Shown here in pieces: positions 1 through 6,059 of a stretch of 6,059 bases of DNA (positions are counted from its first letter, which is position 1; each line of letters begins with the position of its first letter). Under the pieces are notes generated by a model, which was not told where the DNA came from, did no database searches, and saw only the letters and a list, made by a program, of their open reading frames with translations. The position numbers and the translations under genes were made by a program. Source of the DNA: a virus; IMG/VR virus record IMGVR_UViG_3300020029_000043, positions 1 through 6,059 of that record; one strand, given 5' to 3'.

Positions 1-121
1 CCGCGAAGCAATAGCCAGCTGCGGTATGGTCGAGACGCCGGACATGGAGACGCCTTCGGAGCTACCAACAGGAAGCAATCGACTATAGCGGTCAGGATTC
101 GAAGGTATAACGGCCATCGGA
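1..121. repeat. Terminal redundancy (left copy), identical to 5939-6059; assembly overlap of a circular molecule
   Basis: Read base by base: ccgcgaagcaatagccagctgcggtatgg...cggccatcgga occurs at both ends in the same orientation. The capsid reading frame continues in phase across the junction. Confidence 0.97.
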
Positions 122-1050
122 TGGGCGACAAGGAACGACCCAAGCGTAGTAACAGTCGTAGCGGCAGCGCCAGTAGCGAATTGACTTGAAGGACCCGCGG
201 TAGACAGCGAAGTATTTCCGGGATAGATGGTAGAGACGGGGTAACCATCCTTAGATGCGGTAATCGTAGAACCAAGGTCTGAAAGCAATATCTGAGAAAA
301 GAGATTTCCTCTATTATATGTATTATTCGACGACGACACAGACGAAGGATAGAACTGACTCTCAAAATAAGCATCGAGGAATTCGAGATTTCCGAATCTT
401 TGCGAGAAAAAAGTCGGCATGGCACCGAACTGAAGAACATTATACGCGGCACCGGTGCTATTGGGGATAAAATACCAACTACTAGGCCAAGCGAAAGAAT
501 AGAGTCCCCACTGGGAATAACCGTAGTAATTGCGAACAATGTCCCAATAAGCAAGATAAGAATCAGCAGTGCACCAGCCTAAAGGATACGACAACTGGGC
601 CGATGTAAGATTAGCAGACACCGGAACATTACTCGAGGTCGAAACCGGTATAGACGAGGGAATAACACGCAACCAACGAAGCAGCGAGTTCGAATAAGGA
701 TAATTATCTGACGTAAATTCGTACGAACCAGTAGAAGAAGCGGCAATAAAATTCAAACTCAAATTGTTCATATCAAACTTACTACTGTTCGTTCGCATCT
801 CCGGATGGTACAGCTGCAAAGGCACCCAGAAACGGTGAAGTCGAATAGTATAAGGGTTAAACGTCGGAACAGCAAGAGGATTGCTACGAATGTCAATGCC
901 CTGCTCGATAGAGATGCGGTCACGGGCATTAATAAAATCGATTCGCACCGGATATAAAATACCCGGTGTGCATGTAAAAGCCTTACTCTCAGGAACATCA
1001 TAACGAGAGTAACCATTCACAGCGTGAGAGATGAAAGGTTGTTTTCCCAT
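1..1050 (-). CDS. VP1: Major capsid protein (Microviridae F/VP1 family), N-terminal 350 codons; continues across the circular junction into 5938-5198
   Basis: This ORF is missing from the supplied track because it runs off the window edge. I checked every plus-strand triplet in phase 1-3, 4-6 ... 1048-1050 and found no tta/cta/tca, so the minus frame is open from the ATG at 1050-1048 to base 1. Translation begins MGKQPFISHAVNGYSRYDVPESKAFTCTPGILYPVRIDFINARDRISIEQGIDIRSNPLAVPTFNPYTIRLHRFWVPLQLYHPEMR. This resembles the conserved N-terminal beta-strand region of microvirus capsid proteins. It joins in frame to the 5198-6055 ORF, since MAVIPSNP at 117-115 equals 6055-6053. Confidence 0.93.
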   Translation of the reverse strand, partial: MGKQPFISHAVNGYSRYDVPESKAFTCTPGILYPVRIDFINARDRISIEQGIDIRSNPLAVPTFNPYTIRLHRFWVPLQLYHPEMRTNSSKFDMNNLSLNFIAASSTGSYEFTSDNYPYSNSLLRWLRVIPSSIPVSTSSNVPVSANLTSAQLSYPLGWCTADSYLAYWDIVRNYYGYSQWGLYSFAWPSSWYFIPNSTGAAYNVLQFGAMPTFFSQRFGNLEFLDAYFESQFYPSSVSSSNNTYNRGNLFSQILLSDLGSTITASKDGYPVSTIYPGNTSLSTAGPSSQFATGAAATTVTTLGSFLVAHPMAVIPSNPDRYSRLLPVGSSEGVSMSGVSTIPQLAIASR

Positions 1051-1053
1051 AAA

Positions 1054-2145
1054 TTAAATATTTAGTTGAAGTTTATAATGATCCTGCCAAAATTGGAGAA
1101 TGTCCAAATCCAACCAGGCAGGGGGGTCAAAATCAGGCATCTTCCGAGAAGACGCGGAAAAGCGCATTATTTGCTTCTGCTCCCACGTATATGACACTCT
1201 ACTGGATACGGAGGAATTGAGGCCGAACCGCTCAACACACAAAGAAACAATACGCTTAACCAGAGGAGAATCGCTAAAATGTGCATAAGCGTTAGCAGCG
1301 GCAATCGAACGTACAACCTCGTCCTCCGATTTAAGATATTTAAGATAATATCGAGGGATCGCGTAATTGTAACTGATAGCCTTCTTAGAATCATAATAAG
1401 ACCACGACGAAACACGAGCAGAAGGACGAGGCATATAGCCAAGAAAATCACCAACGCCAGCAGATACGAATTTTCGCGTATAACGGCGATGTTGGAGGAG
1501 GCAAGATAAAGGTGTAAGATTTCCATCTACGGTAACATATTTATCCGAGATTTCCTCGGGATTGAATTGAATTTGTTTAGTAACATACTTTACGCAATAG
1601 CGAGCGCGCTTATGGGTAGCCTTTGCCAGCCACACAAAGCCAAGGTCTCGAACAGCAGAACGAATGGTGTTATAAAGAACATTTGTGCCAAACAGAAAGC
1701 CGTGAAAATGTAATCGAGGCTCATTTCCCATTTCGGGATGAGTCCCGAACTCCTGGAAAAAGGCGTGCTTGAACGAATGGCCGAGTTTATGCCGCAAACG
1801 CTCGTTAAAACGGCGGATGAACCGAGAGGGGTCGAGCAAGGCTTCATTATAATACTTAGGAGCAATAGTTATAGTAATAAAAATGGCCTGCTGATTATTG
1901 GCCTTGCAATAGGCAAGCTCGCGTTCCAAGCGGACAAACCAATCATTGCGCTGACGACGCAAGCAGTCTTCACACTTTCCGCAGGGAACCATCAACCACT
2001 GGCGGGCGATATCCCAAGGGCGAAGAGCTAAGGCTGATTTAGCAACATCAGAACCATTTCGGCAAGGATTCTTCTTGTCAAAATAGCGACGATTGCGTAT
2101 CCATATGGGAGATGAACAAGGCATTAGAGTAAACTTCGAAGACAA
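1054..2145 (-). CDS. VP4: Rolling-circle replication initiator (HUH endonuclease, Microviridae VP4 / phiX gpA-like)
   Basis: Motif I is IFITITIAP. The HUH motif PRLHFHGFLF has HFH encoded at 1710-1702 (cat ttt cac). The double-tyrosine motif YCVKYVTK is encoded at 1599-1576 and closely resembles phiX174 gpA YVAKYVNK. An upstream Cys cluster reads VPCGKCEDC. The maximal ORF starts at 2145, but the ATG at 2124 (MPCSSPIWIRN...) is probably the real start; see findings. Confidence 0.93.
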   Translation of the reverse strand: MSSKFTLMPCSSPIWIRNRRYFDKKNPCRNGSDVAKSALALRPWDIARQWLMVPCGKCEDCLRRQRNDWFVRLERELAYCKANNQQAIFITITIAPKYYNEALLDPSRFIRRFNERLRHKLGHSFKHAFFQEFGTHPEMGNEPRLHFHGFLFGTNVLYNTIRSAVRDLGFVWLAKATHKRARYCVKYVTKQIQFNPEEISDKYVTVDGNLTPLSCLLQHRRYTRKFVSAGVGDFLGYMPRPSARVSSWSYYDSKKAISYNYAIPRYYLKYLKSEDEVVRSIAAANAYAHFSDSPLVKRIVSLCVERFGLNSSVSSRVSYTWEQKQIMRFSASSRKMPDFDPPAWLDLDILQFWQDHYKLQLNI

Positions 2146-2324
2146 TCAAATTTAATGCTAGGGTGATCAAGACGACAACGAACAAGGTAATCATTCGCAG
2201 AGGGCTCGTCGGCAAACCAGGCAATAACAACTCGTTTCCGACCTCGGTATGCGCCAATAGAATAGCGATGAGGAATGCTATTGATAAAAGGGGAAAATCT
2301 AGGACGAAAATCAAAATAATCCAT
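2124..2324 (-). CDS. Hypothetical small basic protein (66 aa), translationally coupled to Rep
   Basis: I use the internal Met of track ORF 2124-2387, giving MDYFDFRPRFSPFINSIPHRYSIGAYRGRKRVVIAWFADEPSANDYLVRCRLDHPSIKFDCLRSLL. The ATG at 2324 is preceded by ATTAATT, the same context as the ORF107 start. Its TAA stop overlaps the Rep ATG as TAATG at 2126-2122. The longer form would run through the noncoding hairpin island. I recognise no family. Confidence 0.5.
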   Translation of the reverse strand: MDYFDFRPRFSPFINSIPHRYSIGAYRGRKRVVIAWFADEPSANDYLVRCRLDHPSIKFDCLRSLL

Positions 2325-2366
2325 AATTAATATGCTGGTTATTGAACTATTCGCAACTGGCGTAAG

Positions 2367-2407
2367 GACGCAGGACGACAGCCTCAACGGCTGGGACGCT
2401 GCGCGTC
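2367..2407 (-). other. Imperfect hairpin in the noncoding island
   Basis: gacgc (2367-2371) pairs with gcgtc (2403-2407), and cagcc pairs with ggctg around the loop tcaac. The internal region pairs only partially. It is much weaker than the neighbouring hairpin. Confidence 0.3.
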
Positions 2408-2455
2408 TTCGGCCTCCATGGCTTCACTCCGTTCGAGATATACCGGCAAAGCTGG

Positions 2456-2512
2456 TTGACTTACCAGGACCGCAGGAGAAAAGGGGGGGTCTCCTGCGGC
2501 CTGGTAAGTCAA
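2456..2512 (-). promoter_or_regulatory. Very strong hairpin: 23-bp stem (13 bp, one bulged A at 2469, then 10 bp) with a 10-nt loop aaaggggggg (C7TTT on the coding/virion strand); function unknown
   Basis: All 23 pairs checked by hand. ttgacttaccagg(a)ccgcaggaga at 2456-2479 pairs with tctcctgcggcctggtaagtcaa at 2490-2512. It lies in the 220-nt gap between ORF107 and ORF66. By my count 2361-2560 is about 59% G+C, versus roughly 37-48% in the coding stretches I sampled. Confidence 0.85.
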
Positions 2513-2545
2513 AGAACTTTTCCACCGAGCGGGCGGGTTACTACT

Positions 2546-2869
2546 CTAGTTCCCTTTCCCTTCTTCCTGCGACGTGCCTTCATCGGAAACCAAATCAAAG
2601 TCAAATATAAGAACGAGTGTATTATCGAAAAACTCGATACTGAAATTAGGATACGCACTCAAGGCGTCTACGAGACTGAAAACAGAGCAATGCTCAATAT
2701 AGGGAGAATCAGCAATACTAGAATGCTCTACGTAGGTAGAAATGGGAGTACGTTTAAGAGTGTCAATGGAGAGTGAAGAAAACTGTCCATTTTCAATGTA
2801 GCCTACCTGGACAAGGTCAATCTTGAAGGCAGGATTAATGCGACGGATAACAACGTGAATTTGTGTCAT
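2546..2869 (-). CDS. Hypothetical protein (107 aa), acidic C-terminal tail
   Basis: Complete ORF on the gene strand, not overlapped by any better ORF. The start context ATTAATTATG is identical to that of ORF66. The ATG at 2869 lies 2 nt after the TAA of ORF109 (2874-2872). I recognise no domain. Confidence 0.6.
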   Translation of the reverse strand: MTQIHVVIRRINPAFKIDLVQVGYIENGQFSSLSIDTLKRTPISTYVEHSSIADSPYIEHCSVFSLVDALSAYPNFSIEFFDNTLVLIFDFDLVSDEGTSQEEGKGN

Positions 2870-3201: not shown

Positions 3202-3227
3202 AATAGTGTGGTTATTGGTTTACGATG

Positions 3228-3258
3228 CAAACATACAACAAAGGGAATAAATGAGAAA
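3228..3258 (-). promoter_or_regulatory. Candidate Bacteroidota-type promoter (-7 TAnnTTTG box plus a -33-like TTTC)
   Basis: The minus strand reads TATGTTTG (plus caaacata, 3228-3235), an exact match to the Bacteroides -7 consensus TAnnTTTG. TTTC (plus gaaa, 3255-3258) lies 19 nt upstream, a 3/4 match to the -33 TTTG at the canonical spacing. The site sits about 27 nt upstream of the ORF109 ATG. This is a pattern match only. Confidence 0.3.
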
Positions 3259-3281
3259 GTTAAAAAGGTCGGAAAAAATGT

Positions 3282-4562
3282 TTAATTTCTCCCATGATAG
3301 GCGCGGCGGGCATAGGTAGCACCTTCTCTATCACCGTCAGGCCCGTAAAACTCTCTCAACTCCTCGTAACCTTCGGGACCGGCAGGACCTGCGGACTTGC
3401 GACCGACATAAGAAGCACCGGCGATACCTGCGGCAGTAGCAAAAGCCTTTGTAACATCATAAAACAGAGCATTCTTGTTCTTGCGGATGCTAAACCAGTT
3501 ACCGGACAGACTCTGACGACCTTCACCAAGCTCAAGGCCACGAAGATAAGAGTAATATTCGCGACCTGTAATCTCCTCAAATTCTCCAGTAGGCTCACCC
3601 TTCTCGTTGACCAGGGGAACCTTTACGGGGGTTTCCCAAGTGACTTCAAACATGCGTTGCATATCCTTCTGCTGAATATCAAGAATATCAGCATGAGAAC
3701 GGGACTCACGTGCAGAAGCTTTAGCGGCATCGGCGACAGCGCAAAGATAAGCAAGGTTGGCAGCAGCAGACTGTTCAAGGAGAGGAATCTCAGCATCATT
3801 TTCAGCACGAATACGTTTAGAACGCTCAACCTGTTCAGCATAAGCGGCCTGAATGCGCTGAAAATCATAGGTGGCAGCGAGATCTGCATACTTGTTGTAA
3901 GCCTCCTGATTGATAGCCAACTCGCCATAATAACGAGCAAGCGAAGACTGATTGCTAATGTTAGCTCGCTTTAGTTGCTTCTCGAGCTCGATAAGGGCCT
4001 GACCTTGTTCCTTGGTGGGCATCCTGTTACGAATATCGTCAGCTTGGGCGTTATCCAGATTAGCGGCAGCCTTATTGCGTTCAATAGTTGAATTAACACC
4101 CATGGCCTCGAGTGCGACACCGGCAACGGCAGAACCAGCGCCAGGAGGCAGAGGGCTCGAGAAATCAAAAGATCCACCAGAAGGACCAGAAGCGCCTACG
4201 GAGCCAGCAGAGCCGCCGGACATAGTAGCGTTAACGCCGACACCGGAAGAGCCAAGTACGGCCGCAGGGTTAACACCAGCTTTCAAATAACGGTCGAAAA
4301 CCTTCGAAGGGTCGTTGTAAGCATTCTCATAGTCGAACTGCTTTTGCCAGTTAGCATAATTAATCTCACCTTGTTTCTGCATCTGCTCAAGGGCATACTG
4401 CTGCTGCAGTTTCATCTGCTTCTGCTGATACTTCCACTGACGCTTCAAACTAGGCTTAAGAAGGCCAGAGGCGACCTGACCGCCGGCCGAAATAGCAGCG
4501 GCGCCGAGCATAGCACCGGTGGAAACAGGCTCAACGTAGGACTTGAAATCAATAAGTCTCAT
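3282..4562 (-). CDS. VP2: Minor capsid / DNA pilot protein (Microviridae VP2 / gpH-like), 426 aa
   Basis: It is the second-largest structural-size ORF. It has a Gly/Ala-rich hydrophobic N-terminus (GAMLGAAAISAGGQVASG) followed by a Gln/Lys-rich probable coiled coil. FDRYLKAGVNPAAVLG resembles the AG(L/V)NP motif seen in annotated microvirus VP2 proteins. A long Gly/Ser/Ala low-complexity tract and further helical heptad-like sequence follow. Confidence 0.8.
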   Translation of the reverse strand: MRLIDFKSYVEPVSTGAMLGAAAISAGGQVASGLLKPSLKRQWKYQQKQMKLQQQYALEQMQKQGEINYANWQKQFDYENAYNDPSKVFDRYLKAGVNPAAVLGSSGVGVNATMSGGSAGSVGASGPSGGSFDFSSPLPPGAGSAVAGVALEAMGVNSTIERNKAAANLDNAQADDIRNRMPTKEQGQALIELEKQLKRANISNQSSLARYYGELAINQEAYNKYADLAATYDFQRIQAAYAEQVERSKRIRAENDAEIPLLEQSAAANLAYLCAVADAAKASARESRSHADILDIQQKDMQRMFEVTWETPVKVPLVNEKGEPTGEFEEITGREYYSYLRGLELGEGRQSLSGNWFSIRKNKNALFYDVTKAFATAAGIAGASYVGRKSAGPAGPEGYEELREFYGPDGDREGATYARRAYHGRN

Positions 4563-5197: not shown

Positions 5198-6059
5198 TTA
5201 ACGATTAGACAAACGGGTTGCAAACGTCTTATTTACTAAATTCTTCTTTTGAACAGAATACGAAAGATTGACAAAGAAGTTATCTTCCAGATTGGAGGCA
5301 AACGGAGAGTTTACTTGACCCATATCCACGAACAAAAGGGAATAATACTGATTATAGCTAGCCGACAGAACACGCTGTTGAACCCAATAAGAATAAAGAG
5401 GGATATTGTTAGAGGCTTTTTGGAATCGAGACAGTTGACCAAGAACTTCATCAAACGAGGACCGAAACTCATTGAAACACGGTTCGTAGGCCACAGCTTC
5501 GGAGGCTGAGGTGGTTCCGAATCCAAATTGGAATCCGGGAACATCCTGATATCCAATATCATTATAAATAGGATTAAAATAATCGGCACCAGTATAATGG
5601 AGATAGTCAGGGTAAACACCTGCCCAATAGTAGACGGGGCGAATGCTCAGCATATCAATCATATAGCCAGGTTCGCGGAAATAATAAGACTGACGACGAC
5701 CAAGACGATCGTTGAATGCGATAGCACCACCCTGCTGTCCAAGGGGACCATTAACGCCATCACTAGAGAAATTATTTTGTCCAGCCTGATTCATAACAAT
5801 CTGAACATTGACAGTCTGCGAAGCGCTAAAGAGAAGCTTAGGACGGTCTACATGCTCGATTTTAGAAGCAAAAAAGGTCTCCAACCAATCACTATAACGA
5901 GAACCCCCAGCGCCAAGCAGGTCCTTGTATTCCTGAAGCCGCGAAGCAATAGCCAGCTGCGGTATGGTCGAGACGCCGGACATGGAGACGCCTTCGGAGC
6001 TACCAACAGGAAGCAATCGACTATAGCGGTCAGGATTCGAAGGTATAACGGCCATCGGA
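5198..6059 (-). CDS. VP1: Major capsid protein (F/VP1 family), C-terminal part; 5939-6059 duplicates 1-121
   Basis: The track ORF 5198-6055 starts at an internal Met only because the window ends. The frame is open to the edge and is contiguous with 1-1050 on the circle. The full gene is 1050..1 plus 5938..5198, which is 1,791 nt or 596 aa plus a TAA stop. That size is typical for a non-Bullavirinae capsid protein. Confidence 0.93.
   Translation of the reverse strand, partial: PMAVIPSNPDRYSRLLPVGSSEGVSMSGVSTIPQLAIASRLQEYKDLLGAGGSRYSDWLETFFASKIEHVDRPKLLFSASQTVNVQIVMNQAGQNNFSSDGVNGPLGQQGGAIAFNDRLGRRQSYYFREPGYMIDMLSIRPVYYWAGVYPDYLHYTGADYFNPIYNDIGYQDVPGFQFGFGTTSASEAVAYEPCFNEFRSSFDEVLGQLSRFQKASNNIPLYSYWVQQRVLSASYNQYYSLLFVDMGQVNSPFASNLEDNFFVNLSYSVQKKNLVNKTFATRLSNR
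5939..6059. repeat. Terminal redundancy (right copy), identical to 1-121
   Basis: Same as the left copy. Position 5939 corresponds to position 1. Confidence 0.97.

Follow-up and report, generated by a model that had tools for sequence, protein, structure and literature searches.

The stretch analysed here, called the window throughout, is the whole 6,059 nucleotides (nt) of IMG/VR virus record IMGVR_UViG_3300020029_000043, the genome of a gut microvirus in which a G+C-rich island at 2325-2545 carries a 23-bp hairpin. The island is the sole variable intergenic region of this genome and lies between a small open reading frame (ORF) resembling the J gene of other microviruses, which is the last late gene, and the ORF66-Rep unit. 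We find that the hairpin is best explained as an ordinary transcription terminator in a derived state, and not as a dedicated origin, Rep site or packaging signal. The island as a whole reads as a patchwork of four parts: the end of the J-like ORF (the first 37 nt), the hairpin, a shortened copy of a GC-rich cassette and remnants of an accessory gene. The complete explanation, in which a terminator was extended by a template switch beside a cassette remnant and gene debris, is one that we hold to be probable.

The 23-bp hairpin and its counterparts in related genomes

All genes of the window are on the minus strand. Because microviruses package the coding-sense strand, minus-strand sequence is found in the viral single-stranded DNA (ssDNA) as well as in the mRNA. 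The elements of the hairpin are described on that strand.

2456..2512, minus strand: 23-bp hairpin of an outer 13 bp, a bulge, an inner 10 bp and a 10-nt loop CCCCCCCTTT, from folding and an inverted-repeat scan
2470..2499, minus strand: inner stem-loop CCGCAGGAGA / TCTCCTGCGG, the putative ancestral terminator hairpin, common to all relatives
2456..2469, minus strand: new 3' arm TCCTGGTAAGTCAA, in the place of the family T-tract (GCTTTTTTGTCCA in the relative L009)

In plus-strand coordinates the arms pair 2456-2468 with 2500-2512 (13 bp) and 2470-2479 with 2490-2499 (10 bp), with a bulged A at 2469, and the loop at 2480-2489 reads AAAGGGGGGG on the plus strand and C7T3 on the coding strand. 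This is the strongest inverted repeat of the genome. The 221-nt region, folded on both strands with DNA and RNA parameters and compared with dinucleotide shuffles, gave z scores of -5.5 to -6.3, and 0 of 200 shuffles folded as well. The predicted folding free energy of the hairpin was -41.3 kcal/mol as RNA and -25.8 kcal/mol as DNA, compared to -20.9 and -10.2 kcal/mol for the homologous hairpin of L009. G+C content was 0.590 for 2361-2560 versus 0.462 for the whole window. A search for a U-tract 3' of the stem on the coding strand found none, the tail reading ACCAGCUUUG. An earlier note on this DNA had described a 23-bp stem with one bulged A, far stronger than chance, in a region of about 59% G+C and with no U-tract behind it; all of this was borne out.

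We gathered the regions between the J stop and the ORF66 ATG from 63 relatives with Rep 85-95% identical and from 74 further sequences carrying the cassette; 108 distinct relatives were examined for the hairpin, and a detailed hairpin table covers 60 of them. A GC-rich hairpin of 10-13 bp was present at the same site after the J stop in 108/108. In the tabulated genomes it had a median of 13 pairs, loops of 3-8 nt and a free energy of about -18 to -24 kcal/mol. It starts 7-12 nt past the J stop in the relatives and at the stop codon itself in the window. At least five T within 9 nt follow the hairpin in 43 of the 60 tabulated relatives, and a T-run of at least four was seen in 90 (at least five in 71) of the 108 distinct sequences. 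A simple independent scan also scored the L269 copy as terminator-like. The letters of the stem differ among sub-lineages with pairing kept (CCCCAGGAGA, CTCCCGGGAGAG, CCTGCGGGAGA, CCCAGGGGAG), and hairpin helix 1 shows both compensatory and G-U changes. Across the relatives' stems there are 136 G-T pairs versus 12 A-C mismatches, an excess indicating that the fold is selected on the coding-sense strand. By contrast with the stem, the loop varies freely in sequence and length, with the C7 run confined to the window; it therefore holds no conserved nick or recognition motif.

With their 10-13-bp stems and T-tracts, the relatives resemble canonical intrinsic terminators, and the central hairpin is on these grounds the family's predicted Rho-independent terminator of the late transcript. 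The earlier note had set a terminator aside. It was right that the window copy has no U-tract, but comparison contradicts its conclusion: the inner 10 bp form the common hairpin of the family, in which a T-tract follows it. In an alignment of the relatives, which the note had proposed as a check, the inner stem is kept with compensatory changes and the outer 13 bp are absent. The intergenic regions of phiX174 contain leaky terminators, for example in the H-A region upstream of gene A, and the likeness extends to position, a GC-rich stem-loop between the last gene of a transcription unit and a replication gene. As in phiX174, read-through would be tolerated because all genes lie on one strand of a circular genome. 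Separately, an internal deletion in the hairpin of L227 and L264 (GGCCCCAGG-TCC-TGTGGGC) has removed the apical stem, a further sign of the mutational instability of this hairpin.

The origin of the outer 13 bp was inferred from a comparison with the close relative L009/L269:

L009: ...TTCTT TGACTTACCAGG CCCCAGGAGA cactcctt TCTCCTGCGGG CTTTTTTGTCCA CCGGC...
window: ...TTCTT TGACTTACCAGG CCGCAGGAGA ccccccctt TTCTCCTGCGG T CCTGGTAAGTCAA CCAGC...

The upstream arm TTGACTTACCAGG (2512..2500) is common to the window, L009 and other close relatives and is, by this comparison, ancestral. The 13-nt T-tract segment of the relatives (GCTTTTTTGTCCA) is replaced in the window by the 14 nt of TCCTGGTAAGTCAA, 13 of which are exactly complementary to TTGACTTACCAGG (13/13 pairing), and a mismatch or bulge of the inner stem has also turned complementary. 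The outer 13 bp were found in 0 of the 108 distinct relatives. A 24-mer of the extended hairpin had 0 matches in IMG/VR, a 19-mer had one chance match among metagenome contigs, inside a gene of an unrelated 51.6-kb contig, and a 14-mer of the extension had chance matches only, none with an inverted arm nearby. Since the changes are all templated by the opposite arm, they bear the signature of a quasipalindrome template-switch mutation, a well documented class (PMC7202029, PMC3820800): an imperfect ancestral repeat in which a tract is swapped for an exact complement of similar length (13 to 14 nt). In the proposed event, the nascent strand would have folded back and copied its own other arm, overwriting the T-tract with the inverted 13 nt and leaving a 23-bp stem with no U-tail. 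The extended stem would be weak as a canonical terminator and would probably allow more read-through into ORF66-Rep; it could instead be an RNase III substrate. As in the model of Ripley and Lovett, the clustered changes were all templated by the opposite arm, and they lengthened an existing imperfect inverted repeat and improved its pairing. The window case differs in being recognized by comparison, in the one untemplated T left as a bulge, and in having arisen in a natural ssDNA phage genome, where it destroyed a functional motif, the U-tract.

Several observations weigh against the explanation that a family terminator was extended in this way. The window copy has a GC-rich stem-loop near a stop codon on the sense strand; it has no U/T-tract (tail ACCAGCTTTG), while most relatives do, and with 23 bp and a 10-nt loop it falls outside the typical terminator geometry (stem ~5-14 bp, loop 3-8 nt), with the upstream stop codon inside the stem. 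Roughly one relative in four, in most cases a carrier of a type-B cassette, has only a pyrimidine-rich tail and no clean T-tract. Terminator status of the relatives' hairpin is predicted from sequence. Viral ssDNA and mRNA have the same sense, and covariation alone cannot separate DNA- from RNA-level function of either the hairpin or the cassette. Finally, the one extra T is unexpected for a perfect template switch, and the extension is present in a single assembly, where it may have come from amplification or assembly.

In the latter case the 13-nt arm would be an artefact, a fold-back or chimera that arose at a hairpin during multiple-displacement amplification, library preparation or assembly. 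Amplification with phi29 polymerase, an enzyme that switches templates at hairpins, is common for ssDNA viromes, and the extended arm is a singleton, as its absence from IMG/VR and its lone chance match in metagenome contigs attest. The exact window proteins also have no record elsewhere. However, typical chimeras are long inverted duplications, whereas here a clean 13- to 14-nt replacement sits in collinear sequence, a second arm-matching substitution stands alongside in the inner stem, and the same region carries other bona fide lineage-specific changes (two deletions). The neat, near-equal-length replacement points to a real event, and we judge an artefact to be unlikely.

It is quite unlikely, in our view, that the extension is adaptive, providing a 23-bp double-stranded RNA stem that acts as an RNase III site or sequesters the stop codon, and so alters the 3' end of the late mRNA or read-through into ORF66-Rep. 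RNase III requires roughly two helical turns, which 23 bp just attains, and T7 and the lambda sib site offer precedents. The stem encloses the J stop codon (2511..2509), and a few relatives, among them L082, L078, L036 and L053, pair the stop region with sequence past the inner stem through 20-24 interrupted pairs. The extension is nonetheless found in one genome only, with no sign of spread and no parallel perfect long stems among the relatives.

The reading of the earlier note, in which the 23-bp hairpin is itself an ssDNA signal (a complementary-strand origin like those of G4, phiX or M13, a recognition site for Rep or a signal for packaging), is very unlikely. The hairpin is very stable on the packaged coding-sense strand and lies, with no U-tract, in the only sizeable structured intergenic region, and hairpins of this kind resist single-stranded DNA-binding protein (SSB) and prime in G4 (PMC13037366). 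Against this stand the absence of the outer 13 bp from all distinct relatives, the T-tract that follows the inner stem in most of them, the freely varying loop and the common G-U pairs of the stem. For a nick site of an HUH-type Rep, loop and flanks are not conserved, and the conserved box 5' of the hairpin is coding. Moreover, relatives with a Rep ~72% nucleotide-identical lack the intergenic region altogether, the J stop overlapping the ORF66 ATG. Because more distant relatives do without such a region, nothing essential, such as a Rep origin or packaging signal, can reside in it; nor is the 23-bp hairpin conserved among the relatives as a required complementary-strand origin would be.

A small basic reading frame and the decayed parts of the island

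The island contains four features beyond the hairpin itself.

2583..2509, minus strand: unannotated basic, J-like ORF of 24 amino acids, MKARRRKKGKGTRVVTRPLGGKVL, from translation; out of frame with ORF107, whose 3' end it overlaps
2443..2455, minus strand: weakened small hairpin H2, CCAGC TTT GCCGG (CCGGC TTT GCCGG in relatives), from alignment; GTATAT follows at 2442..2437
2376..2444, minus strand: 5' two-thirds of cassette A, with GGTATATC, the conserved single-stranded GGAGTGAAGCCATGGAG (2430..2414) and a three-way junction (2414..2373), from covariation
2325..2378, minus strand: two remnants (2378..2344 and 2343..2325) of a 76-amino-acid accessory ORF that is intact in L259, from BLAST and global alignment

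The earlier note had counted 220 nt as noncoding. This is wrong: 2545..2509 comprises the final 12 codons and stop of the J-like ORF, whose TGA (2511..2509) falls within the 5' arm of the hairpin. The truly noncoding part is 2508..2325, or 184 nt, the final 54 nt of which are remnants of the deleted accessory ORF. Over the last 12 codons, minor-allele counts in 64 genomes were 19, 29 and 167 at codon positions 1, 2 and 3, and TGA, TAA and TAG were all in use as stops. From this third-position bias we conclude that the J-like ORF is coding. It is conserved in all relatives and unannotated in every GenBank record inspected. The peptide persists in Dulem virus 225, bajarodmic virus 624, Dipodfec virus UA23Rod_963 and MG945170, which are more distant relatives; in these genomes no intergenic region intervenes, and the very basic peptide end (for example MSRKKKKTRSNGVRVVVRPVGGKVL) leads directly to the ORF66 ATG, which its stop overlaps. 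An almost invariant box 5' of the hairpin, AGTAGTnACCCGCCCGCTTGGTGGAAGAGTTCTTT, shared by every close relative, was first read as a candidate Rep origin; this was ruled out, as the box corresponds to the last 12 codons of the ORF.

The name J-like rests on analogy and assigns the peptide to no family, and the predicted role in DNA binding or packaging follows from that analogy. Nine of the 24 residues are lysine or arginine. The peptide compares with the 25-residue J of G4 (MKKSIRRSGGKSKGARLWYVGGTQY) in length, in a lysine- and arginine-rich N-terminal two-thirds and in a short C-terminus with a GG motif (TRPLGGKVL in the window, LWYVGGTQY in G4), and, as with J of phiX174 and G4, its gene is the last of the late block. 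It differs in that the gene precedes the Rep block and is not between D/E and F, and in having no sequence-family match: searches of Pfam (E <= 10) and PHROG (E <= 1) with the 24-residue peptide gave no match, including to Microvir_J; the peptide is too short and divergent.

The remainder of the island has decayed. The earlier note had also pointed to a weaker hairpin at 2367-2407, and this structure is real, consisting of the P2 (GACGC-GCA-GCGTC, 2407..2395) and P3 (CAGCC-GTTGA-GGCTG, 2393..2379) arms of the three-way junction. Upstream of it, helix 2 (H2) shows compensatory changes among the relatives (GC to or from AU, CG to or from UA). The window was aligned with L259 (IMGVR_UViG_3300020030_000071), in which the terminator, a complete type-A cassette and, between the cassette and ORF66, the 76-residue accessory ORF (MKWLDLYPDILSSSCVSTPVANSS...) are all present in the intergenic region. 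Relative to L259, a clean deletion of ~122 nt has removed the P1 3' strand together with P4, P5 and the beginning of the accessory ORF, and a second of ~155 nt has taken most of what was left of that ORF. What the window retains of the cassette is probably disabled in part. By these alignments, the last 54 nt of the island (2378..2325) are gene debris, and the region turns over fast. The sequence just upstream of the accessory ORF of L259 resembles the sequence after the cassette in the distant L309 lineage, and the cassette and accessory ORF may travel together.

An exchangeable GC-rich cassette

The regions of the relatives fell into four classes: minimal ones of 98-119 nt, in which only a short run of AT-rich sequence accompanies the terminator, type A of ~240 nt, type B and type C. 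The window region is of type A, in which H2, GTATAT and a single-stranded GAAGTGRAGCCATGGAG are followed by a three-way junction (P1, P2, P3) and hairpins P4 and P5. The intact cassette is 127 nt long and GC-rich. Its P2 has the form GACGC-GNA-GCGTC and its P3 the form CNGCC-GTTAA-GGCNG. In 34 type-A sequences, 98.1% of cells were paired, compared to 30-47% with slid partners. Eleven pairs had changed on both sides, and 0 of 500 shuffles reached the observed covariation score; these figures count related sequences, not events. P1 alone exists in four Watson-Crick versions (GGCCG/CGGCC, GCTCG/CGAGC, GCCCG/CGGGC, GACCG/CGGTC), and the helices of the three-way junction contain 47 double-change cells versus 1 wobble. 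G-U pairs occupied 9 of ~1120 cells in the cassette helices versus 18 of 203 in the terminator helix (Fisher p = 1.5e-9). Among the 34 genomes all four nucleotides occur at N of the G-N-A loop of P2, which a C-G pair closes, and the P3 loops are GTTA or GTTAA. The scarcity of G-U and the GNA loops point to DNA-level or strand-symmetric selection on the cassette, unlike the RNA-level selection on the terminator.

The P2 loops match a known DNA motif. The GCGNAGC mini-hairpin, a C-G-closed G-N-A(-like) loop in which N is free, is extraordinarily stable as DNA (PMC13037366, PMC3201870); it occurs at the complementary-strand origins of G4, St-1 and alpha3 and at RSF1010 ssiA, and binds SSB poorly (PMC13037366). 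We found GCGNAGC / GCGNNAGC in the cassette and CCGAAGG and GCGAAGC in type C, and confirmed the origin hairpin GGACGGCGAAAGCCGTCC in the G4 sequence. Type C, the class of the pig-faeces genomes MG945713, MG945730, MG945141 and MG945784, has a branched insert within the terminator loop; genomes with this insert between the J stop and ORF66 are L001-L004, L020, L042, L054, L058 and L065. The insert has two GAA-triloop mini-hairpins (CAGCC-GAA-GGCTG and CCGC-GAA-GCGG) in the reverse order of the type-A junction, a pattern that would fit an inverted copy in which GNA loops evolved anew on the coding strand. A further observation concerns a CGAAR pentamer that occurs five times in ~125 nt of cassette A (for example at 1160-1310 of L009/L269: AACGAAGTG, GCCGAAGAC, GGCGAAACG, TTCGAAAGT, TTTCGAAGCG); these may represent repeated binding sites for a protein, or simply a by-product of the C-GAA-G mini-hairpins. 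A micro-ORF in the cassette (ATG GAG GCC ... TAA) was ruled out on two counts: in several genomes the variable N of the P2 loop gives rise to a stop codon, TAG, and the observed changes are paired and compensatory, not synonymous. The Rfam search proposed in the earlier note returned no true family match. With the window at E <= 1 it gave only a spurious mir-252 (25 bits versus a gathering score of 45), and with relatives carrying cassette types A, B and C it gave nothing relevant.

The cassette core was found in 84 IMG/VR contigs, all of microvirus size. It is optional: the shortest intergenic regions have none, and closely related genomes lack it. Copies that are ~93% identical over 127 nt occur in genomes that otherwise have no sequence in common with the window, their Rep being only ~27% identical. 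In the lineage of L309 and L322 it lies in gene orientation. In L247 (3139-3265), L310, L315, L318 and MG945515.1 (L325; dog faeces, 5770-5930), it is inverted relative to all genes and lies between the VP2 stop and the Rep start. Cassettes of the inverted lineage carry either an A-type or a B-type core, and both cores occur between the same flanks in different lineages. In all three lineages the cassette is in the intergenic region ahead of the Rep block. Collectively, these comparisons indicate that the cassette is an exchangeable, Rep-independent module. We found no sign that it is a passenger fragment of host DNA, which would have counted against the earlier note: a 24-nt core had 15 matches, by exact pattern matching only, in 185,579 bacterial species genomes, all in high-GC bacteria and with ~25% flank identity, the chance level.

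Most likely, the cassette acts through structure in a single-stranded nucleic acid. The literature, searched for conserved structures between the genes of microviruses other than the phiX group, yielded nothing relevant. For gut microviruses, which are very abundant, to our knowledge neither a complementary-strand origin nor a noncoding regulatory element is known. Our best guess, offered tentatively as a possibility, is that it is a structure-dependent ssDNA element aiding complementary-strand initiation, in which the hairpin cluster on the viral strand would keep SSB off and help to start synthesis. More doubtful is the specific form of this idea, that the cassette represents a new mobile, orientation-tolerant class of cis element, an SSB-resistant GNA three-way junction that would recruit host primase or a PriA-type primosome. 

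The complementary-strand origin of G4, St-1 and alpha3 is a primase-dependent hairpin cluster in the F-G intergenic region. The cassette, rather than the 23-bp hairpin, resembles these origins and RSF1010 ssiA: it is a GC-rich hairpin cluster in the main intergenic region, on the viral strand, and it holds mini-hairpins of the GCGNAGC, GNNA or CCGAAGG type (PMC13037366). It differs from G4-type origins in having no sequence homology to them, in its three-way junction, in being dispensable and in being inverted in one lineage; no conserved primase start triplet was found in the cassette. Rolling-circle plasmids carry single-strand origins (ssoA, ssoU, ssoT, ssoW) that are structured, non-essential, dependent on host factors and swapped between replicons with unrelated Reps, much as the cassette is common to microviruses with 27%-identical Reps. 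These origins, however, are strictly orientation-dependent and have RS_B and CS-6 motifs, neither of which was found in the cassette. Two observations speak against a role in priming. Inversion in one lineage runs contrary to any orientation-specific signal, and dispensability fits a selfish or neutral element equally well. The motifs and the covariation are present, yet the cassette is optional, inverted in one lineage and truncated in the window.

The cassette might instead work as RNA, as an orientation-tolerant hairpin cluster between the end of the late transcript and the Rep block that attenuates read-through or guards the mRNA against 3' exonucleases in the manner of repetitive extragenic palindromes and bacterial interspersed mosaic elements (REP/BIME), or as a structured leader or small RNA. 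Its constant position ahead of the Rep block in three lineages fits this idea, as does the ORF that comes after it in L259 and L309. Inversion is tolerated, and covariation restricted to Watson-Crick pairs would allow the transcript of either strand to fold. On the other hand, G-U pairs are nearly absent, unlike in the terminator of the same genomes, no Rfam family matched and no convincing promoter was found, and the C-G-closed G-N-A triloop is a stability motif of DNA, not RNA (PMC13037366, PMC3201870). We regard an RNA-level function as rather unlikely.

Somewhat improbable, too, is that the cassette is a selfish or neutral mobile hairpin element spreading among co-infecting microviruses to no benefit. 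Hairpin-forming invasive elements are known in organelle genomes (PMC2800124), and the cassette shares with REP/BIME and mitochondrial GC clusters (PMC2800124) a short, GC-rich, intergenic hairpin structure in an AT-richer genome, either orientation and mobility. It is optional and missing from close relatives, far more GC-rich than the genomes that carry it and near-identical in both orientations despite 27%-identical Reps, and it decays readily, as the truncated window copy illustrates. Unlike those elements, it has one copy per genome, invariably in the same syntenic gap, shows multi-helix covariation and has no identified mobilizing enzyme. Several independent compensatory changes argue that the fold is under selection within the clade; we saw no terminal repeats, target duplications or associated transposase, and no copies beyond chance in the bacterial species genomes.

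Genome layout and what the island means

The genome is a circle of 5938 nt, with an exact terminal redundancy of 121 nt (window 1-121 = 5939-6059). The L309 and L310 contigs have the identical 121-nt overlap length, which suggests a shared assembly pipeline. In gene order, the layout is as follows.

2324..2124 (feature 2124..2324), minus strand: ORF66, a conserved small protein directly upstream of Rep and overlapping it
2124..1054, minus strand: Rep/VP4
1050..1 and on across the junction to 5198, minus strand: VP1
between VP1 and VP2, minus strand: two small ORFs
4562..3282, minus strand: VP2
after VP2 and before ORF107, minus strand: ORF109
2869..2546, minus strand: ORF107, after which the island comes next

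Exact-protein look-ups with ORF107 and ORF66 gave no record elsewhere. A second intergenic gap, the 80 nt at 3202-3281 between VP2 and ORF109, is AT- and T-rich, with structure at chance (z = -0.7). No convincing sigma-70 promoter was found in the island, genome-wide counts being those expected from shuffles, and no match to the Bacteroidetes-type TAnnTTTG box was found within 2325-2508. Elsewhere in the window, this -7 motif has five matches, all on the coding strand (3228-3235, 2602-2609, 2147-2154, 774-781 and 3742-3749), three of which lie 19-27 nt upstream of the starts of ORF109, the J-like ORF and Rep. With 4.25 expected, the total is at chance and is merely a hint about promoters and host. 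In the pig-faeces relative MG945664.1 (L326; 5980-6039), ORF66 is nearly all deleted; the ~45 terminal nt that are left include ATTAAATTTGATTGTCT, in which a -7 box of the Bacteroidetes type (TAAATTTG, homologous to window 2154..2147) precedes the Rep ATG by ~23 nt. Judging from this genome, the virus may be able to do without ORF66, the 3' end of which may contain the promoter of Rep.

The explanation favoured here, a terminator extended by a template switch, carries a caution: a striking 23-bp palindrome in an ssDNA phage would be a recent mutational accident to an ordinary terminator and no dedicated replication signal. It would also be a clean natural case of quasipalindrome "perfection" that wiped out a U-tract, useful for testing whether microviruses need termination before Rep. 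The most conserved "noncoding" sequence of the region is accounted for by the unannotated gene of a predicted J-like packaging protein. Of more interest than the hairpin is the cassette, a covariation-supported structured module that is common to unrelated lineages and absent from Rfam, and a concrete candidate for testing. Were it to act as we tentatively propose, it would be the first complementary-strand origin outside the phiX/G4 group, swapped among unrelated gut microviruses like the single-strand origins of plasmids.

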